IMG/VR virus record: IMGVR_UViG_3300045004_000084
DNA length: 64,000 nt
Source: a virus
Taxonomy: Duplodnaviria; Heunggongvirae; Uroviricota; Caudoviricetes
Direction: 5' to 3' (one strand)
The notes beneath the pieces were generated by a model. It was not told the DNA's origin. It did not search any database and saw nothing but the letters and a program-made list of their open reading frames with translations. The position numbers and the translations under genes were made by a program. The number at the start of each line of letters is the position of its first letter. The stretch's first letter is position 1. Of this stretch, positions 49,475-55,492 are shown piece by piece.

Positions 49475-51076
49475 CTACCCCGACAGGTAGAGCAGGTCGT
49501 GCAGGCGGGCCTCGGCCGTCTTGGCCCGCAGCGATGCCAGATCACGAGCCAGTTCCGACTCGTCGGCGAACTGGACCTCGTCGCGGAGCAGGTCGGGAGA
49601 CTGGCTGGTGAACATCTCCTTCACCGCCACGAGCTGCTCCGGCGTCAGGTTCAGGAACCACTTCCGCTCGTCTGGTTCCCACTTACCGGACAGGTTCTTG
49701 CCCTTCATGAACCGGCCGTGCAACGTGCCGTCGCCGACGAACACGTCGGCCCCCTCGTTGTCGTCGGGGTTGATGATCCCGTCGAAGTACCCGTAGTCGA
49801 CCGGGTAGCTCTTCGTGACAGGACCCGCAGGCGTGGGGAACACTTTCTGGAACCCCTTCGGGCGGTCGATCTTGATGGCCGGCAAGCCGGCGATCTTGAC
49901 CATCTTGCCGTCCGCGTTCGGTCGCTTGAACGACGACAGCAGGTCGGCCAGCTCGGTCTCCGCCACCTCCCGGTGGGAGTTGACCACTGGGCCGAACGCC
50001 TTCAGGACGGCCGACATCTCCTCCGGCGTCATCCCGTAGAGCAGCTTGGTCTCCGCGCCGCCTCTGGCGTCGGGCCTGTTGACCCGCATGACGCCGTGCG
50101 TACCGCCCGACCCCTTGAACACGTCCAGATCGTCATCGTCCTCGCCGACGTAACCCGGCAGGTACCCGTAGTCGGTCGGATACGTCACGCCCTCGATGGG
50201 ATAGTCTTTCAGCGCCGCGTCGGACGGGTCACGGAACTGACGGTACGACCCCCGTGGCTGATCGACCGTGAACCCGGACATCATCTCGGCCAACTTGGTG
50301 ATCACAGACATGCGATCCTCCGGTGAGTTTTGCCCGACGTGGGATACGCCGGGCCACCGGATTGTGACAGCATCATGGAGTCGATAAAGAGCGGCCTTCT
50401 TGATATGCTTCTTGCGGATACGGGCCAGACGCCCGAGGCGGCCGACCATGCCGTCGCCTCCGCCCATCTGACCCTTGAGGTAGTAGTACGCCCCGGGAAC
50501 ACCCTCCGTGAGGACGTGAGACATCCCGCTCGTAACCGCCTTAGCGGCCTGCAAAGGCCCCTCCGCCTTCTGCAGGGCCATAGTCATCGACGGATGCGCG
50601 TCGAGATGCAGCGTCCAGTAGTCGGGGTGGCTGTGCAGGTGGTGGTTGTCGTCCACGCGGCGAAACGACTTGAACCTGTCCTGGCCGGTTTCGGGAATGC
50701 CGGCCAGGACGCTCTGGAACCCGAGTCTGCGGAGTTCGTCCTCGCTGATGTTTGTTTTGGGAATGGCGATGCGCTTGTGCCCGGTGCCGACGAAGTCGCC
50801 ACGGCTGTCCAGCTTCTTGGTGTAGCTGACCCACTTCTTGAGCAGGTCGAGAGGCGGCGGGGGAGTGGGATCGGTGACCAAACGGACCAGGGCGTTCTCG
50901 TCACCCAACACGCCGGCTTCCTCGACGGACTGCTCGTCGAAAGCCCGCTTCGATTGTGTTGGCGCCAAGACCCGACCGGCCTTCTCTAGAACATCCAGAA
51001 ACGACACGGCCGGCCGGAACGCCACGGCCCCGGTGCCGAGCGCCTCCAGACCGGCCACGACAAGATCCCATCCCAT
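49475..51076 (-). CDS. 533-aa protein with two tandem family-I inorganic-pyrophosphatase-like modules and an about 270-aa N-terminal extension
   Basis: 'YPTDYGYLPGYVGEDDDDLDVFKGSG' and 'YPVDYGYFDGIINPDDNEGADVFVGDG' both resemble the PPase active-site block 'YP.NYG.I..T...DGDP.DVLV'. Confidence 0.5.
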   Translation of the reverse strand: MGWDLVVAGLEALGTGAVAFRPAVSFLDVLEKAGRVLAPTQSKRAFDEQSVEEAGVLGDENALVRLVTDPTPPPPLDLLKKWVSYTKKLDSRGDFVGTGHKRIAIPKTNISEDELRRLGFQSVLAGIPETGQDRFKSFRRVDDNHHLHSHPDYWTLHLDAHPSMTMALQKAEGPLQAAKAVTSGMSHVLTEGVPGAYYYLKGQMGGGDGMVGRLGRLARIRKKHIKKAALYRLHDAVTIRWPGVSHVGQNSPEDRMSVITKLAEMMSGFTVDQPRGSYRQFRDPSDAALKDYPIEGVTYPTDYGYLPGYVGEDDDDLDVFKGSGGTHGVMRVNRPDARGGAETKLLYGMTPEEMSAVLKAFGPVVNSHREVAETELADLLSSFKRPNADGKMVKIAGLPAIKIDRPKGFQKVFPTPAGPVTKSYPVDYGYFDGIINPDDNEGADVFVGDGTLHGRFMKGKNLSGKWEPDERKWFLNLTPEQLVAVKEMFTSQSPDLLRDEVQFADESELARDLASLRAKTAEARLHDLLYLSG

Positions 51077-51092: not shown

Positions 51093-51494
51093 TCACCGAC
51101 GCCAGAACCGATTAGCCGGTTGTTCTGGCGGCGGAGTCTGCGGAAGGCCGAGCTTGGCCTCCTGCTCGTTGCCGAATCGCTGCAGACTCTTCACGCGCCA
51201 CCGGTCGCCCAGAAGGCCGAGCCCGATACCGGTCCCCGACAGTCCAGCGCCGCCGGCGGAGCCGAGTAGGATGTTCTTCAAGTTGCTGTTGCCGGCTGGC
51301 TCGGGAGCAACAGGGGCAGGCCGTATCGGCCGTACCGAAGGTCGCGAAGCAGGTCTCGGCGCCGGAACCGGCGTCGGAGGCGGCGGCACCGGCGTCGGAG
51401 GCGGCGGTTTGGGCGGCATTACAGTCCCGAAACCAGGAGGCGGACCACCTGGTTTTGCGGGAAGCGGAAGGCTGCCGTATGGGGTTCTAATCAC
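51093..51494 (-). CDS. Pro-rich ORF (133 aa). It is probably the 3' half of a gene split by the 65-bp duplication
   Basis: GTG start inside duplication copy 1. The protein begins (M)IRTPYGS, the same peptide that ends the upstream ORF. Confidence 0.4.
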   Translation of the reverse strand: MIRTPYGSLPLPAKPGGPPPGFGTVMPPKPPPPTPVPPPPTPVPAPRPASRPSVRPIRPAPVAPEPAGNSNLKNILLGSAGGAGLSGTGIGLGLLGDRWRVKSLQRFGNEQEAKLGLPQTPPPEQPANRFWRR

Positions 51495-51601
51495 TGGCGG
51501 TTTGGGCGCAGGAGCCGGAACGGGGACCGGCTTTGGCTGCCGTATGGGGTTCTAATCACTGGCGGTTTGGGCGCAGGAGCCGGAACGGGGACCGGCTTTG
51601 G
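51472..51601. repeat. Perfect 65-bp direct tandem duplication (2 x 65 bp)
   Basis: 51472-51536 equals 51537-51601 (ctgccgtatggggttctaatcactggcggtttgggcgcaggagccggaacggggaccggctttgg). 65 is not a multiple of 3, so it causes a frameshift. Confidence 0.9.
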
Positions 51602-51847
51602 AGCCGGCTTGGGAGCGGCGGCCGGAACCGGGGCCGGCTTTGGAGCGGCAGGTACGGGCCTTGGAACAACAGGTGCCGGTTTTACGGCCGCCCCCGCCCT
51701 CGCCTTCGACCACGCCTTCATGGCGTCCATCACGTCCTTCGGACTGGCCGCCAGCTTGATCAGCTCGAACAAACGAGATTCCACTTCGGCCCGCTGGGGA
51801 CGAAACACCAGAGACGCCATCTTCATCATCGCGTTCGTCTTGCTCAT
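51491..51847 (-). CDS. Pro-rich ORF (118 aa; N-terminus MSKTNAMMKM). It is probably the 5' half of a gene split by the 65-bp duplication
   Basis: Ends ...KPPVIRTPYGS then 14 out-of-frame residues and a stop inside duplication copy 1. Confidence 0.4.
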   Translation of the reverse strand: MSKTNAMMKMASLVFRPQRAEVESRLFELIKLAASPKDVMDAMKAWSKARAGAAVKPAPVVPRPVPAAPKPAPVPAAAPKPAPKPVPVPAPAPKPPVIRTPYGSQSRSPFRLLRPNRQ

Positions 51848-52857
51848 TTTTTGTCCCCGCCATTGTCCTCCTTCTTGTTCTCCTTCGACCCGTCCTTCGG
51901 ATCGGGCTTGTTAACGCCCACCCCGGCCCGATTGGCGATCTGACGGGCGTCGTGGCGACGCTTCGCCCCGCCCAGAGCCGTCGCGGTCGCATTCGTCACG
52001 TCGTCGACGTACAGTCCGGGCTCAAGCCCGTCAGCCAGGTCGACACCGAGACCGCCCTCGTCGGCTCTGATAGCAAGGCCGAGCGGAGTATTCGACAGGA
52101 CCGCCATCGTCGGGCTCGTGGCCTTGCTGGCGGCGTTACGCTGAAGGATCCGCAGGTCCAGGGCCGACAGCGGTCCACCGACGAGGGGATTGAGCAGCCA
52201 CTGGACCTTGTGACGCTGCTCGTTGTACCGGTTGCCGGCCAGCAGCTTGTCTATCGCCAGCACCCGAGCGGACTGGTCGACGGCGTACGGCCCGTCGGCC
52301 TTGAAGATGCCGGCCTTCTTCTCCTTCTTGCCGCCCTTCTCGTCGTCCTGCTTGGCAAGCTGTTCGTACAGAGCGGCCTCGGCCTTGTCCGACTCGGGCT
52401 CGAACTCGTAGGGGGCAATGCGATCCTGGTACAGGCCCCGGGCCTTGTCCTGCCGCTTCGATCCGCCGGCAATCGCCGCCGCAGGAGCGCCGACCAGTGA
52501 CAACGGATTGAGAGGGAACGCGCCGCTGAGGATCCGGAAAGTCGGACTGGTAGCCCTACTGGCGTTCACCCGGCGGTCGAACCGGTAACCGACCTCCGAC
52601 AGCGGCCCGCTAACGAACGGGTTGAGCCAGTAGTGGAACGGATGCTTCTTGCGATTGCGGGCCAGAGCCTGGATGATTTGGTCGTCGGCTGCCACGTCGG
52701 CTGCCGAGTCGGCGGTGTACGCCCCCAGGGAAGCCGCCATCTTCATCACGGCCTTGTCCGAACACGGCTTTTTCTGCCGGGCTTTCTGCCCGTCCGTCCG
52801 GACCTCTTTCGCCGAGATCAGGAACGACAGCTTCATCATCGCATTCGTCTTGCTCAT
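51844..52857 (-). CDS. Protein (337 aa) with N-terminus MSKTNAMMKL (shared with the next gene) and two internal about 55-aa repeats (…WLNPFVSGPLSE… / …WLLNPLVGGPLSA…). Unknown
   Basis: ORF with protein-like composition. ATGA overlap with the downstream gene. Confidence 0.45.
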   Translation of the reverse strand: MSKTNAMMKLSFLISAKEVRTDGQKARQKKPCSDKAVMKMAASLGAYTADSAADVAADDQIIQALARNRKKHPFHYWLNPFVSGPLSEVGYRFDRRVNASRATSPTFRILSGAFPLNPLSLVGAPAAAIAGGSKRQDKARGLYQDRIAPYEFEPESDKAEAALYEQLAKQDDEKGGKKEKKAGIFKADGPYAVDQSARVLAIDKLLAGNRYNEQRHKVQWLLNPLVGGPLSALDLRILQRNAASKATSPTMAVLSNTPLGLAIRADEGGLGVDLADGLEPGLYVDDVTNATATALGGAKRRHDARQIANRAGVGVNKPDPKDGSKENKKEDNGGDKK

Positions 52858-53016
52858 ACGATCTCCTGCTTCTTCTTATTCTTCTGGTTCCGCCACGGGG
52901 CAGGGCCGAGCACCTTGTCGGCAATGGGATCCTTCGTTCGCATCAGCAACTGCGACAACCCGTACGCGCCGGTTGCCGTTCCCACTGCAGGCATGATCGA
53001 CGACTCGGTGTCCGGA

Positions 53017-53097
53017 CCTTGTACCCGGCGACGATCGCCTCGTGGTGCTCGAGGTCGATGCGGCGCTCCAGTACTCTGGTATTGCAGGATCAGGTCC
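53017..53097. repeat. 81-bp copy (order B-A) of a segment of the 53902-54405 gene. It is the circularly permuted partner of 54159-54237 (order A-B)
   Basis: A = tctggtattgcaggatcaggtcc. B = (cc)ttgtacccggcgacgatcgcctcgtggtgctcgaggtcgatgcggcgctccagtac. The copies are identical base for base. Confidence 0.85.
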
Positions 53098-53368
53098 AGT
53101 AGCAGTTCCCCGGCTCGTACCCAAGCTCGTTTCTGCGCCTCTCCAGGGCGTGCCCCGGCGGCCTCAGCCCCATGTCCTCCAAGAAGGCCGTGAAACTGTT
53201 CCGCCACCTCGGACAGACGCGTATCCCGCGACCGCCGTAGTCCTTGTACTGCTTGTGCTTCTTTCTCTCGCAGCGCTCCACCATCGCCCGCCAGGAGTTG
53301 TACTCCGGCGTCCCGACCTTGCGGTGCTGCTCCCGACTTTTCTTCGGTCTTGGTCGTTGAGTTTTCAT
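53090..53368 (-). CDS. Small HNH-family homing-endonuclease-like protein (92 aa) of the phage 'GGRGI-VC-RW ... YEPGNC-W' family
   Basis: 'EYNSWRAMVERC...YKDYGGRGIRVCPRWRNSFTAFLEDMGLRPPGHALERRRNELGYEPGNCYWT' is the conserved block of small phage proteins usually annotated as HNH endonuclease. Real-protein composition, unlike the overlapping frame. Confidence 0.6.
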   Translation of the reverse strand: MKTQRPRPKKSREQHRKVGTPEYNSWRAMVERCERKKHKQYKDYGGRGIRVCPRWRNSFTAFLEDMGLRPPGHALERRRNELGYEPGNCYWT

Positions 53369-53888
53369 ACAGCACTCCTTTCTTTCGTACCGCGATGGTA
53401 GCGTGAAAAGGGTGCTTGGGGAAGGGCGTCAGGCCGTAGCTCTTCCGGAGCATAGCCAGATCGGGGCTGGCGATCTCGATGAACCACACCTTCGACATCT
53501 CCGGCCAGCCGGCCGGCTCGACCTCCTTGATAGGCCCCAGCGTGTAACGGAAGTGGTGACCCCACTCGTGGACCTTGTCGGCCCCGCCGATCTGGTCGAG
53601 CTCTTCGGGTCGGAACACAGAAACATGGCCGTTGAGACGGCCGTCTCTGAGAGGAAGCTGCGCCCCGTGCTCGTCGAGGGCGTCGAACGCGCCGCGAATC
53701 AGCGCGTTGGGGACCTTGAGAAGGCCCCAACCAGAACTGGATAGCTGAAGCTCGCCGCTGAGTGCGTGTACTTTGACGGCGTCGCCGCCGGCCTTGTACA
53801 TGAGGCCCACGGCCTCGCCCGTCTCGTAGCGGCTACGGGCGATCTCGGCGACGGTCTTGTAGAACGGGCGGGTCAGACTGGGGAACAT
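53367..53888 (-). CDS. 2H phosphoesterase (LigT / cyclic-nucleotide phosphodiesterase-like) domain. The annotated ORF continues without a stop to 52854, but that extension looks spurious
   Basis: Two H-x-T/S-x motifs ('NGHVSVF' at about residue 88 and 'FHATIAV' at about residue 162) at the spacing typical of LigT. The domain ends exactly where the HNH-like ORF begins. Confidence 0.5.
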
Positions 53889-53901
53889 CCGTGTCCTCCG
53901 G

Positions 53902-54405
53902 TCACGCGGCAGTGGTCGACTCCGGTGGGCTCGCTTGCCCGACGCTGCCCTTGAGCTCGGCCAGCTCCGCCTTCAGCTCGTGCAGCTCGGCCTGCTGGGC
54001 GTCGTACCGCCCCTGCATGGCGTCGTACCGCTCCTGCATGGCCCTGCCATCTGCTTCGCACTTCTCGTGGTTCTTCGCCAGAATGTCGAACTTGATCGAC
54101 AGGGCGTCGAACTTATCCCGCAGGTCGATGACCTCTTTGCGAGCCAGATCGCGGGCACTCTGGTATTGCAGGATCAGGTCCTTGTACCCGGCGACGATCG
54201 CCTCGTGGTGCTCGAGGTCGATGCGGCGCTCCAGTACCTCGATCCTCTTCTCTTCGACCTCGACCCTGTCGGCTTCAACGTCCACCTTCTTCTCGCGGAC
54301 CACGTTGCGACTGCGACCGATCAGATAGGCGGAGACGGCCGTCGCCAGGGCGCCGAAGCCGCCGATGAGGAGGCCACCGATCGAAAGCAGAGTCGAGGTG
54401 TCCAT
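53902..54405 (-). CDS. Membrane-anchored coiled-coil protein (167 aa): N-terminal TM helix then a long heptad-repeat region. Spanin-like or SPFH-partner-like architecture
   Basis: 'LLSIGGLLIGGFGALATAVSAYLIG' is a TM segment. The rest is E/R/K/L-rich coiled coil. A GGAGG RBS lies 8 nt upstream. It contains the A-B copy of the permuted repeat (54159-54237). Confidence 0.5.
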   Translation of the reverse strand: MDTSTLLSIGGLLIGGFGALATAVSAYLIGRSRNVVREKKVDVEADRVEVEEKRIEVLERRIDLEHHEAIVAGYKDLILQYQSARDLARKEVIDLRDKFDALSIKFDILAKNHEKCEADGRAMQERYDAMQGRYDAQQAELHELKAELAELKGSVGQASPPESTTAA

Positions 54406-54435
54406 GGCAGCCTCCGTGCCGCTGAGACAGGTTAA

Positions 54436-54468
54436 GGAAAAAGAGCCCCGGGCAAAGAGCCGGGGCTC
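54436..54468 (-). terminator. Intrinsic terminator (minus strand) located only about 30 nt upstream of the 53902-54405 start codon
   Basis: gagccccgg-gcaaagag-ccggggctc forms a 9-bp stem. The minus-strand tail is TTTTTCC. Confidence 0.55.
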
Positions 54469-54811
54469 ATTGTGGGCCGCCGAGGGGTCGGCGCTCTCCG
54501 GATCCCCTACCCGGAGTCCGTCTCCCGCCTTGCGGGCAAGAGAGTCGGGGCGGAAACGAGTGCGTCCGCCGCCTCCACCTGCTGCGTCGGACGGCTTTCG
54601 CCAGGACGCAGGTTCCCGTCACAGCCGCAGTCGTCCTAACCGTAGCCATGACTCCTAACCGGTCGGCACTCACGACCAGCGCCGGGTTCTCACCTCGGCG
54701 ACCCACGAGGTTTAGTATCGCCGAACGAGGCCGAAGAGTCCAGCCCGTGATCAGAGTGCCCGCGTTCTAGAAGAAAGTGAATTCGTGCTGATGTGAGAAC
54801 GGAGCTTGGCA

Positions 54812-54839
54812 TTGACAGCGCTGGACGCTAGAATAATCA
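54812..54839 (+). promoter_or_regulatory. Sigma70-like element TTGACA - 16 bp - TAATCA on the plus strand (TAGAAT overlaps at a shorter spacing) in an AT-richer intergenic stretch
   Basis: attgacagcgctggacgctagaataatcag. Perfect -35 but a weak -10. No plus-strand gene follows. Confidence 0.3.
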
Positions 54840-54858
54840 GCGTCCACCACTCCTCCGC

Positions 54859-54912
54859 CCCACCAGGGTGCGTTCCCGGCGCACAACCTACCCTGGTGGG
54901 GCTTCTCTTTTT
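54859..54912 (+). terminator. Plus-strand intrinsic terminator-like structure (long imperfect hairpin plus a U tract)
   Basis: cccaccagggt-[gtgcgttcccggcgcac aaccta]-accctggtggg followed by GCTTCTCTTTTT. It overlaps the stop of the minus-strand SPFH gene. Confidence 0.45.
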
Positions 54913-55492
54913 ACACAGGCGCCGGACGCTGGATCGACGACCCGATCGCCGCCGGATCGGTCAACAGTCGGACGGTCGGACCCCGGAAGAAGTTGTTGAG
55001 CCTGAGCGAGACCACGTTGAGGCCGAACTGCCCGATCTCGTTGTTGACGGCAATCCGGATCCGATCCCGCACGGCTGCCCACTCGGCGCGGTCTTCGGGC
55101 ATGATCTGGTCCCAGCTCAGCCGGGCCATCTCCTCGGCGATCACCGATGCGGCGATCTCCTGAACGGTTTCGGTGTAGTGGCCCAACTTGAGGTACGCAG
55201 CCGACGCGTCGGTCACGACCACGCTGACGCTGGCACTGAACGTAAGAGCGGATCCGTCGCTGAGCATCACGTTCTGCAGGCTCAGCGTGTAGACATCAGG
55301 AACGGTCGATACCGTGCGGACGTCGCACAGCCAGGGGACGACGAGCTTTAGCCCCGGGCGAACCTGAAACCGGTACTTGCCGGCCACGAAGTACAGGCCG
55401 ACCTCCCACGCCCACACGACCCTGAAGGGTATCATGTGCCCGGCGATCTCGATCAGTTTCAGAATGAGATCGCTCACGGCAGTTACCCCCAT
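54911..55492 (-). CDS. SPFH/band-7 (stomatin/prohibitin/HflKC-like) domain protein (193 aa)
   Basis: 'LKLVVPWLCDVRTVSTVPDVYTLSLQNVMLSDGSALTFSASVSVVVTDASAAYLKLGHYTETVQEIAASVIAEEMARLSWDQI' follows the SPFH core pattern. Confidence 0.55.
   Translation of the reverse strand: MGVTAVSDLILKLIEIAGHMIPFRVVWAWEVGLYFVAGKYRFQVRPGLKLVVPWLCDVRTVSTVPDVYTLSLQNVMLSDGSALTFSASVSVVVTDASAAYLKLGHYTETVQEIAASVIAEEMARLSWDQIMPEDRAEWAAVRDRIRIAVNNEIGQFGLNVVSLRLNNFFRGPTVRLLTDPAAIGSSIQRPAPV

Follow-up and report, generated by a model that had tools for sequence, protein, structure and literature searches.

Background

Free-standing homing endonuclease genes of phages are known to split their host genes, as mobE does in nrdA of Aeromonas phage Aeh1 and as is seen for the T4 gene 60/mobA cassette. 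Templated ('filler') insertions are known from junctions of microhomology-mediated end joining or template switching, as described by SD-MMEJ and FoSTeS/MMBIR. Endonuclease genes that hide in another frame of a host gene that is otherwise uninterrupted were first reported in 2025 for one gene family of cultured mycobacteriophages (PMC11855218), the ShiLan domain and Pacc40 gp60 being out-of-frame 'hidden' HNH endonucleases in the DNA methylase genes of actinophages (Arsenault, Gosselin and Gogarten 2025, PMC11855218). Phage polyvalent proteins with 2H and InPase domains were surveyed by Iyer et al. 2017 (PMC5512222), and homing endonucleases in polyvalent genes are mentioned 0 times in that survey.

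The locus described here lies in a window of 64,000 nucleotides, which is the whole stretch of phage DNA that was analysed. The region is likely to represent a decaying stage of a hidden out-of-frame insertion of the homing-endonuclease type in a phage polyvalent (2H phosphoesterase) gene. As in the ShiLan system, some alleles carry the insertion and close relatives lack it, the host frame is free of internal stops and an endonuclease-family protein is encoded in an alternative frame, intron and intein signatures are lacking, and the in-frame product is predicted to be unstructured. The two systems differ in the host gene, which is here a virion-type polyvalent 2H/InPase protein gene and in ShiLan a methylase gene, and in the nested protein, which is here phrog_3377 'HNH/AP2'-like with Arg at the canonical His position, whereas that of ShiLan is a canonical HNH with zinc fingers. 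The start codon is here an ATG taken from host codons, compared to a GTG inside the insert for ShiLan, and the phages are uncultured, with 52-70% GC, and are not mycobacteriophages. In addition, stop avoidance is here quantified, two insertion sites are found, and the copy in the window is a truncated remnant sealed by templated filler.

The other known systems share single traits with the locus. The mobE and gene 60/mobA cases have the endonuclease gene at a domain boundary of a phage gene, and one relative (L002) looks like such a split; the classical host ORF is however terminated and restarted, or bypassed, whereas here the host frame runs through. An intein with an overprinted homing-endonuclease ORF resembles the locus in having the endonuclease frame under stronger purifying selection than the overlapping host frame. 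The host-frame sequence of that intein splices itself out, whereas no splicing domain is present here, which leaves the junk peptide to be retained in the protein or tolerated as a linker. The SD-MMEJ and FoSTeS/MMBIR products are similar in having an exact nearby copy at a deletion junction with 2-3-nt microhomology at three joints; they differ in that the copy here amounts to exactly one period in circular permutation, and divergent copying from a single ectopic site is thereby implied.

Results and Discussion

The host 2H phosphoesterase gene

The host ORF has 344 codons (52854..53888, minus strand, start at 53888) and consists of a 2H domain, a linker and a native tail. The 2H-SAK phosphoesterase domain occupies codons 1-172 (53373..53888, minus strand), and Pfam PF22547 matched residues 71-171 with 32.2 bits compared to a cut-off of 27. 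This match is in accordance with the preliminary description, in which a 2H-phosphoesterase ORF was said to overlap an HNH-like gene in another frame. Both His-x-Ser/Thr motifs are found in the domain, H88 in GHVSV and H162 in FHAT, and the two histidines (HVS and HAT) are invariant in 45 homologues. The 2H region showed 84% nucleotide identity to the close relative L001 over 53896-53461. A 2H-SAK domain with variable downstream modules is a likeness to the polyvalent proteins of Iyer et al., and the relatives of the host gene add InPase, NUDIX, peptidase C39 and DUF5661 domains. The bacterial and archaeal genomes scanned with the 2H domain gave no relative and thus no clue to the host of the phage.

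The frame following the 2H domain had been reported to stay open for a further 170 low-complexity codons with no stop. It is indeed open for 170 codons across the HNH-like gene, and no in-frame stop was found just after the domain. A stop was however located at 52854-52856 (TGA), where it overlaps, as ATGA, the start codon of the following gene (52855-52857), and the intact gene of L001 ends in the same overlap with its next gene. The extension is not low-complexity throughout either, as its last 52 codons make up the polyvalent protein's own conserved C-terminal tail (GPDTESSIMPAVGTATGAYGLSQLLMRTKDPIADKVLGPAPW..., codons 291-344, 52854..53018, minus strand). This tail of 52 aa showed 85% nucleotide identity to positions 5702-5843 of L001 and is found at the protein ends of L001, L007, P0003 and P0004. 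The linker before it holds about 110 non-native codons, made up of read-through of the nested gene and of filler; an example of the host-frame peptide running from linker through filler to tail is DLILQYQSTGAPHR. In the AlphaFold model of the host product the 2H domain has pLDDT >95 and residues 177-319 are almost all <50, and the host-frame linker is predicted to be disordered.

The truncated nested gene

The nested HNH/AP2-like gene (53090..53368, minus strand) encodes 92 aa and lies over host codons 174-267, +1 relative to the host frame. The small HNH-family gene proposed earlier at this position was confirmed by a match to phrog_3377, a phage family labelled HNH endonuclease (E=5e-31). 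The PHROG matches span only profile positions 4-84 of 196. The ORF ends ..GNCYW-T-stop, whereas the full-length relatives go on with ATRxEQxxN and two helix-turn-helix modules, so that about 125 codons at the 3' end, i.e. the ~125 aa after NCYW, are missing. In the DNA the truncation point is seen as AACTGCTACTGG followed by ACCTGA in the window and as AACTGCTACTGG followed by GCGACC in L011. The last sense codon and the stop (ACC TGA) come from the A copy of the repeat described below. A complete endonuclease-family ORF in the alternative frame is found in the relatives (204-229 aa) and not in the window, which therefore holds a remnant and not a full member of the family. Since the C-terminal motif and the DNA-binding modules are lacking, the remnant is probably no longer a working homing enzyme. 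An AAGGAG sequence, built from the host codons R-K-K-G-V, lies 6 nt upstream of the nested ATG (53375..53380, minus strand) and may act as a Shine-Dalgarno sequence. The remnant status of the HNH-like gene, together with the loss of ~560 bp of the host gene, had been missed in the preliminary description.

The Pfam, NCBIfam and PDB sequence searches with the remnant and with the full-length copies or their alignment gave nothing meaningful, and beta-lactamase matches to the nested protein (E~0.01) were rejected as noise. The only matches were PHROG families and BFVD entries labelled 'HNH endonuclease', 'AP2' or 'HTH homing endonuclease'. The family motif is L-E-R-R..N..GY.P.NC.WAT..EQ..N, and R77 is invariant where His is expected; the canonical HNH catalytic His was not seen, as no His occurs among the invariant columns of the nested-protein alignment. 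The deposited-phage collection contained no related genome; DNA similarity was limited to 117 bp of the nested gene, which matched a 'putative HNH endonuclease' of Pseudomonas phage PfAn1 at 73%. Scanning of viral and metagenome contigs with the remnant (tblastn) retrieved about 100 family members, none above 63% identity, and the pre-deletion allele of the nested gene was not among them; the best full-length relative is 77% identical in amino acids. The lost 3' half of the nested gene and the lost host modules were also searched for across the window by tblastn, and nothing was found elsewhere in it.

Empty and occupied alleles in the relatives

The close relative L001 has no HNH-like gene and carries an intact gene of 419 aa with the 2H domain, Cys-rich modules and a Gly-rich tail. 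The homology of the window to L001 halts after ..TTK and picks up exactly at 53015. A comparison with relatives free of the HNH-like gene had been suggested as a way to see the native 3' end of the phosphoesterase gene. It does show the tail, but ~560 bp of the host gene, including its Cys-rich and Gly-rich middle modules, are missing from the window. Alleles without the nested gene were found in L001, P0001, P0003, P0004, P0006, P0008 and P0011, and full nested copies in L002, L007, L008, L009, L011, L113 and L114, all in the +1 frame and 204-229 aa long. Occupied and empty alleles are both present in both host clades. The nested gene lies directly after the 2H domain in most cases and after the InPase domain in one lineage; its ATG is made from host codons, and every nested copy starts with its own ATG.

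The fate of the host frame after the nested gene was also compared. It re-enters a conserved EEKRGPxxEYCPHCDARLERDP module in L007, L008, L009 and L011, and in L113 it runs into the remaining domains of the gene, including DUF5661. In L002 it is open over the nested gene, ends 89 nt later and is out of frame with the downstream modules, which lie in a separate overlapping ORF, so that this locus resembles a split gene. The 2H domain of the window is itself mosaic: its N part is 84% identical in amino acids to L001, which has no nested gene, and its last ~30 codons have the PKHPFHAT..VLYEN form of L113 and L011, in which the nested gene is present. The patchy distribution and the mosaic 3' end of the 2H domain may be taken as indirect signs of homing.

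Open host frame and selection on the nested frame

The host frame is stop-free across the nested gene in all the seven full copies and in the window. For the full copies 3-11 stops are expected in synonymous shuffles, and the P values were 0.023, 0.014, 0.006, 0.003, 0.0002 and <2e-4 (twice); for the 92-codon remnant of the window the stop-freeness was not significant (synonymous shuffle P=0.16). Among 74 distinct loci of the gene family, a spanning stop-free frame was present in 5/5 nested copies compared to 0/69 free-standing ones. The open frame had been taken for a missing-stop anomaly, an interpretation that does not hold, given that seven relatives nest the same gene family in the +1 frame with a stop-free host frame. 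Over the same DNA, the identity between relatives was 95/85/71% in the nested frame and 87/64/46% in the host frame. Judged from these sequence comparisons, selection is shown to act on the nested protein, and the host frame is constrained only to stay open. As the host frame is stop-free across the nested gene, the host protein would be translated through it as an unstructured linker into the downstream modules.

The permuted 79-nt repeat and the proposed repair

The copied DNA comes from the coiled-coil gene (53902..54405, minus strand), the product of which has 167 aa, a hydrophobic N-terminal segment and a coiled coil. Its product gave coiled-coil Pfam matches only, every one under the cut-off, and the orthologue in L001/L004 is 74% identical with the same b-a order. 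The source segment (54157..54237) consists of A (54157-54181, 25 nt) and B (54182-54237, 56 nt) and encodes ..VLERRIDLEHHEAIVAGYK followed by DLILQYQS.. on the minus strand. The filler of 79 nt (53019..53097) carries B (53019-53074) and then A (53073-53097), the two overlapping by 'AC', and is thus an exact copy in circularly permuted order, 79/79 identical to the source 1.1 kb away; the number of such B/A matches expected by chance, with <=3 mismatches allowed, is 0. The base-perfect recurrence of A-B as B-A had been noticed in the preliminary description, the coordinates of which (53017-53097 and 54159-54237) were right within 2 nt. A relative carrying B-A without the HNH-like gene was not found among the loci compared. 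A second perfect duplication, of 65 bp and in tandem, occurs 1.5 kb from the permuted repeat.

The B-A copy fills precisely the interval from the truncation point of the HNH-like gene to the resumption of native-tail homology, and the three joints share GG, GT and (A)GG as 2-3-nt microhomologies. At the B/tail junction the first native-tail bases (53011..53018) are TCCGGACC, which match the end of A (TCAGGTCC) at 6/8 positions, and the native context of the tail start in L001 and L007 is ..GTCCAGGCCCCGGACACC. An exact nearby copy at a rearrangement junction with microhomology at each joint is what characterises a templated insertion. The earlier reading of the region as a scar of endonuclease-associated illegitimate recombination is essentially right in view of this anatomy; its other half, a +1 frameshift fusion, is not needed. 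The nested ORF takes its stop from the filler, which also moves the host frame by +1. When it was removed in silico the tail fell out of frame, and because 79 = 3n+1, its presence puts the conserved 52-aa tail back in frame.

The repair that gave rise to this junction is inferred to have proceeded as follows. A double-strand break or an aborted homing or repair event would leave two ends, ..GCTACTGG and GGTCCGGACACC.., and both may have primed through 2-3-nt microhomology at one ectopic site, the b/a boundary ..TACAA/GGACC.. of the coiled-coil gene. Divergent copying outwards would then extend the left end by 'a' and the right end by 'b', and joining of the two extensions via the GT microhomology would yield a-b instead of b-a. 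The same product could come from copying of a transient 79-nt tandem duplication or from serial template switching, and the order and number of the steps cannot be read from a single end product. The patch would restore the host frame into the 52-aa tail, with termination again overlapping the start of the next gene, which is probably why this repair product survived; the chance of frame restoration is 1 in 3. Several other origins of the filler were rejected. A b-only filler via the 6-nt microhomology TACTGG would be 51 nt long and fail to restore the frame, and does not correspond to the junction observed; an in situ tandem duplication does not fit copies that are permuted and 1.1 kb apart; and a diversity-generating retroelement or other programmed repeat does not fit identical copies in a single lineage with no reverse transcriptase.

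Alternative explanations

The preferred reading was weighed against the other explanations of the locus. The HNH-like gene may simply have split the 2H gene, in which case the open frame would be irrelevant, the 2H extension meaningless and the 79 nt a neutral scar that happened to keep the frame, the tail being expressed, if at all, as its own ORF of 46 aa from the ATG at 52994. The stop-freeness of the window remnant, taken alone, agrees with this (P=0.16), as do the in-frame ATG before the tail (..SSIMPAVGT..), the 1/3 chance of frame agreement and the existence of a split arrangement in L002. All the seven full-length nested copies nevertheless keep the host frame open well above expectation, the remnant inherited its open frame from such copies, and the ORF of the window ends in the ATGA overlap exactly like the intact gene of L001; this joint reading is therefore regarded as improbable. 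A programmed +1 ribosomal frameshift giving a 2H-HNH fusion protein, the alternative put forward in the preliminary description, is very improbable. The nested ORF does overlap the 2H domain at its end, in the +1 frame, and the translation of hidden endonucleases was an open question in the ShiLan paper (PMC11855218), but each nested copy has its own ATG, preceded in the window by AAGGAG at 6-nt spacing, and family members elsewhere are free-standing genes. Moreover the host product requires no shift, given that its frame leads on into conserved host modules.

Another possibility is that the B-A block pairs functionally with its source as direct repeats, serving programmed excision or duplication of the 2H cassette or arising from a circular or tandem intermediate made by the endonuclease-like protein. 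Such a role would explain why the block is exactly one 79-nt period and why imperfect 8-nt repeats flank it, as expected for the integration of a circle. The copy is however confined to one lineage (it is absent from L001, L007-L011 and L113), no recombinase lies nearby, the remnant protein lacks DNA-binding modules, and two-ended microhomology priming accounts for the one-period geometry without a dedicated function, which makes this explanation still less probable than frameshifting. Endonuclease ORFs inside phage genes are classically borne by introns or inteins, and the nested segment could accordingly be spliced out as a group I/II intron with an endonuclease ORF or as an intein, the open frame being incidental. 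Against this, no Rfam family matched at E<=1 over 52000-55000, no Rfam intron reached the gathering score in the seven relatives, and neither Pfam on the window product nor the precomputed Pfam data of the relatives showed a Hint/intein domain in the host products. In Pfam the window product has 2H-SAK alone, and no family other than 2H-SAK is precomputed for the L007, L008, L009 and L011 products. An intron also gives no reason for the strong avoidance of host-frame stops, and the window segment is truncated and carries foreign filler, so that splicing has a slighter chance again. The least probable explanation is an assembly or sequencing artefact, such as a chimeric join at shared k-mers. 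It would suit copies that are base-perfect and the presence of the second perfect duplication (65 bp, tandem) 1.5 kb away. Nevertheless, 9 contigs carry the identical 344-aa product, and L006, a 2.4-kb contig from a different sample, matches at 100% across the junction, although it stops short of the source copy. The junctions coincide precisely with the place where the homologous gene is truncated and with that where native homology resumes.

Conclusion

The present loci extend the arrangement described in 2025 to an endonuclease family unrelated to the first, to another class of host gene, to uncultured phages with 52-70% GC and to two insertion sites. They also provide quantitative evidence that an open host frame is actively maintained, evidence for selection on the nested frame, and an example of decay in which the element cannot simply be lost without breaking the host gene. 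In annotation, gene calling at such loci yields one long "hypothetical protein" without the nested gene, and polyvalent proteins are inflated by junk linker sequence. The permuted 79-nt patch in turn offers repair biology a clean natural record of microhomology-templated repair in a phage genome.

A broader reading, which taken as a whole is put forward as tentative, is that the out-of-frame nesting is an evolved lifestyle and not an accident. The HNH/AP2-like family would then be specialised in invading the inter-domain linkers of virion-type polyvalent genes, always in the +1 frame, the only relative frame in which any protein can be overprinted without host-frame stops through synonymous third-position choices, and with a start codon recruited from host codons. 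The host would have to read through the element, for its downstream modules or for translational coupling, and decay of the element would thereby be restricted to frame-preserving outcomes. The 79-nt patch would be a selected, compensatory, frame-restoring repair, and the remnant would be in the course of exaptation as a linker. If this reading is true, the loci would make up a natural series of the homing cycle, from the empty site through full nested copies at two sites and the split gene to the patched remnant.

Permuted repeat and its donor gene

All genes across this part of the window lie on the minus strand. The permuted repeat of the preliminary description was found to be real. Block B (56 nt, 54182-54237) has an exact copy at 53019-53074 and block A (25 nt, 54157-54181) at 53073-53097; the copies stand in the order B-A with a 2-nt overlap (AC), giving 79 nt that are a circularly permuted form of the source. 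A search tolerating up to three mismatches placed each block at its two sites and nowhere else, with no occurrence expected by chance. The source is part of a 167-aa gene (53902-54405, minus) whose product has a coiled coil and a hydrophobic segment; this gene was identified as the donor because its native order is also that of the orthologue in a relative. The 344-aa product spanning the junction was identical on nine contigs and a contig from a different sample showed 100% identity across the junction, which excludes an assembly artefact. The 100% identity between filler and source indicates a presumably recent event.

Upstream of the coiled-coil gene, positions 54397-54911 of the window were compared with L001 (3303-4098), a viral contig carrying an allele without the nested gene. 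The intergenic stretch 54397-54752 was 89.5% identical, above the flanking coding DNA, and matched nothing in Rfam. In place of about 320 nt in L001 that contain a csrA homologue (a gene which L007-L011 carry as well), the window has 40 nt (54753-54792) and thus lacks csrA; a terminator-like hairpin occurs at 54857-54902.

Host 2H-phosphoesterase gene

The 2H ORF starts at 53888 (minus); Pfam places a 2H-SAK domain at residues 71-171, after which a further 170 codons are open. The repeat, the open frame and the HNH-labelled ORF had been described largely correctly; the stop codon reported as missing is present as TGA at 52854-52856, overlapping the ATG of the next gene. The 2H domain of L001 is 77% identical to that of the window, and its intact 419-aa gene, without the HNH-like gene, encodes the 2H domain, Cys-rich zinc-ribbon-like modules, Gly-rich hydrophobic segments and the tail ..PDTEAAIAPAVGTAAGAYGLSQLLMRTKDPIADKVLGPAPW... 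Homology between the two extends from 53896 to about 53350 (..TTK) and again from exactly 53015 to 52874 (85% nucleotide identity), revealing that about 560 bp of the native gene were replaced by the HNH-like ORF and the 79-nt block. The final 52 codons of the seemingly endless ORF are the conserved native tail in its own frame. The proposed frameshift fusion is not right. In the AlphaFold model of the window product, the 2H domain had pLDDT above 95 while residues 177-319 were almost all below 50.

The 2H domain of the window is a mosaic: the first ~145 codons are closest to L001 (84% amino acid identity; 90-95% nucleotide identity at the 5' end) and the last ~30 have the PKHPFHAT..VLYEN form common to alleles with the nested gene. 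This would be compatible with co-conversion when the element was acquired, a fit that is no proof.

Modules of the polyvalent proteins (P0001-P0011; L001 4598-5857) are set apart by a recurring linker A-(V/A)-E-K-(L/M/T)-A-x-(L/M)-(L/I), such as AVEKLAGML, AVEKLAHLL and AAEKLASML, and the nested gene adjoins one such motif (..AEAERLLAS..). Cleavage by a protease, or other processing, at these linkers could free the junk peptide. Three ORFs (51093-52857) separate the 2H gene tail from an InPase-like gene (49475-51076); they have no Pfam or PHROG match and no counterpart in L001, where the flanking genes abut. Two of them (51844-52857 and 51491-51847) are paralogues, both starting MSKTNAMMK.

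Truncated nested gene and junction

The HNH-like ORF (53090-53368, minus; 92 aa) has PHROG matches (E=5e-31) to families annotated as HNH endonuclease, spanning only positions 4-84 of the 196 in the profile. In an alignment to complete nested proteins, it retains all invariant residues up to ..GYEPGNCYW and then ends; the complete proteins continue with ATRxEQxxN and two helix-turn-helix modules, so that ~125 residues are absent. The DNA reads AACTGCTACTGG followed by GCGACC in L011, a relative with the complete gene, versus AACTGCTACTGG followed by ACCTGATCC in the window, placing the break at the first base pair of block a. Neither the missing nested half nor the missing host modules were found elsewhere in the window. 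The nested family is very common in phages in BFVD, under the names HNH endonuclease, AP2-domain protein and HTH homing endonuclease. The nested protein gave no sequence match to curated models or solved structures, and the family has an invariant Arg at the expected position of the catalytic His. Membership of the HNH superfamily is not established from these comparisons; a nuclease or homing activity is presumed.

On the sense strand the junction reads ..GGGAACTGCTACT (remnant), then GGACCTGATCCTGCAATACCAGA, the shared GT, ACTGGAGCGCC...GCCGGGTACAA (a-b), then GGTCCGGACACCGAG.. (native tail); the source in b-a order reads ..GAGGTACTGGAGCGCC...GGGTACAA GGACCTG...CCAGAGT GCCCGC... The filler thus lies between the break of the remnant and the native tail, with microhomology at the three joints (GG, GT and (A)GG in turn), which bears out the suggested recombination scar. 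Removal of the 79 nt would bring the host frame to a stop 39 codons on and put the tail out of frame; with them (79 = 3n+1) the tail is in frame. The nested remnant also takes its final codon and its TGA from the filler. Restoration of the frame probably has selective value.

Repair would have begun with a break in the full nested element, or with aborted repair or homing synthesis through it, leaving one end within the nested gene (..TACTGG) and the other, after resection, where the tail begins (GGTCCGGA..). The two ends are similar to the b/a boundary of the coiled-coil gene (..TACAA followed by GGACCTGA..) and each could prime there, the left end copying a and the right end copying b outwards, before the two extensions united at the GT microhomology. 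This two-ended priming yields the sequence base for base and accounts for exactly one permuted period, although the same product would arise from contiguous a-b copied from a transient 79-nt tandem duplication, or from two serial template switches. Two-ended priming at the b/a boundary is considered the most likely pathway. At a distance of 1.5 kb, 65 bp are duplicated in tandem without a mismatch (51470-51534 and 51535-51599), with a GG microhomology bordering the duplication. This shows that such slippage events do occur in this genome, and the 79-nt patch is an event of this kind too. Removal of one copy joins ORF 51491-51847 (118 aa) to ORF 51093-51494 (133 aa) as one 229-aa Pro-rich ORF, which marks the duplication (3n+2) as a recent frame-breaking mutation.

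Nested genes in relatives and openness of the host frame

A complete 204-229-aa HNH/AP2-like gene, of the family to which the window's ORF belongs, was found in the +1 frame right after the 2H domain in L007, L008, L009, L011, L113 and the more distant L002, the host frame being without a stop across it. These relatives, reached via the protein database, proved to be long 'hypothetical proteins' with a middle part that is the nested gene translated in the wrong frame. After the nested gene, the host frame returns to the conserved module EEKRGPxxEYCPHCDARLERDP in L007, L008, L009 and L011, and continues into the remaining domains, including DUF5661, in L113. In L002 (5899-9880, 52% GC) it ends 89 nt past the nested gene, with a 20-nt overlap with the start of a 904-aa ORF that encodes the downstream modules in a different frame; the gene is either split and translationally coupled, or carries a frameshift that was never corrected. 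In L114 (3001-4950, P0059) the +1-frame nested copy instead follows an InPase domain (host codons 358-570, stop-free); nesting of the family at the InPase site was also seen in P0042 and P0067.

The nested ATG is formed from host codons (K-H-V as AAG CAT GTC, or L-Y-D/E). The start-creating His/Tyr codon was seen only in alleles with the nested gene; L001 has CGG AAG AAG AGC GTC there. Shine-Dalgarno-like strings from host codons occur just 5' of this ATG: AAGGAG in the window (within 53366-53385), AGGA/AAGG/GAGG/AAGAGG-type strings in L007, L008, L009 and L113, arising from the rare AGG Arg codon in L007-L009, and a weak AGA-derived one in L011.

Synonymous codons were shuffled within each nested gene and host-frame stops were counted. 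The shuffles predicted 3-11 stops, with probabilities of none of 0.023, 0.014, 0.006, 0.003 and 0.0002, and of below 2e-4 for L002 (zero stops across the whole nested gene against 10.7 expected) and L114. Among 74 distinct loci with the family, a spanning stop-free -1 frame was found in 5/5 nested copies and 0/69 free-standing ones, over 20 of the latter being from loci of 60% GC or higher. The open host frame is more than an effect of high G+C. Over the same DNA, relatives share 95/85/71% identity in the nested frame versus 87/64/46% in the host frame, indicating selection on the nested protein, the host frame being merely held open. Judged by the genetic code, the frame used appears to be the only one in which synonymous nested third positions can always avoid host stops (T/AA, T/AG, T/GA). 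No Rfam family was found in the window region or relatives, which argues against an intron; intein domains were absent from the Pfam results for the window product and from the listings for the products of relatives.

Comparison with known systems

Methylase genes of mycobacteriophages were reported in 2025 to contain 'hidden out-of-frame HNH' insertions (ShiLan domain, Pacc40 gp60). These insertions share with the present loci the stop-free host frame, an endonuclease in another frame, the absence of features of an intron or intein, and an in-frame product without structure (PMC11855218). A further likeness is with the cyanobacterial dnaX intein, where the endonuclease is likewise out of frame. 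The present loci differ from ShiLan/Pacc40 in the endonuclease family and in the host, a polyvalent protein with 2H/InPase domains; such proteins are predicted to be packaged into virions, and the paper describing them does not mention homing endonucleases (PMC5512222). The anatomy and the family-wide avoidance of stops are demonstrated. The window further differs in representing a later stage, in which the nested gene is truncated, host modules are lost and a patch restores the frame: it holds a decayed out-of-frame nested endonuclease-type gene within a polyvalent 2H gene, and the 79-nt insertion, templated through microhomology, seals the remnant and leaves the host ORF intact.
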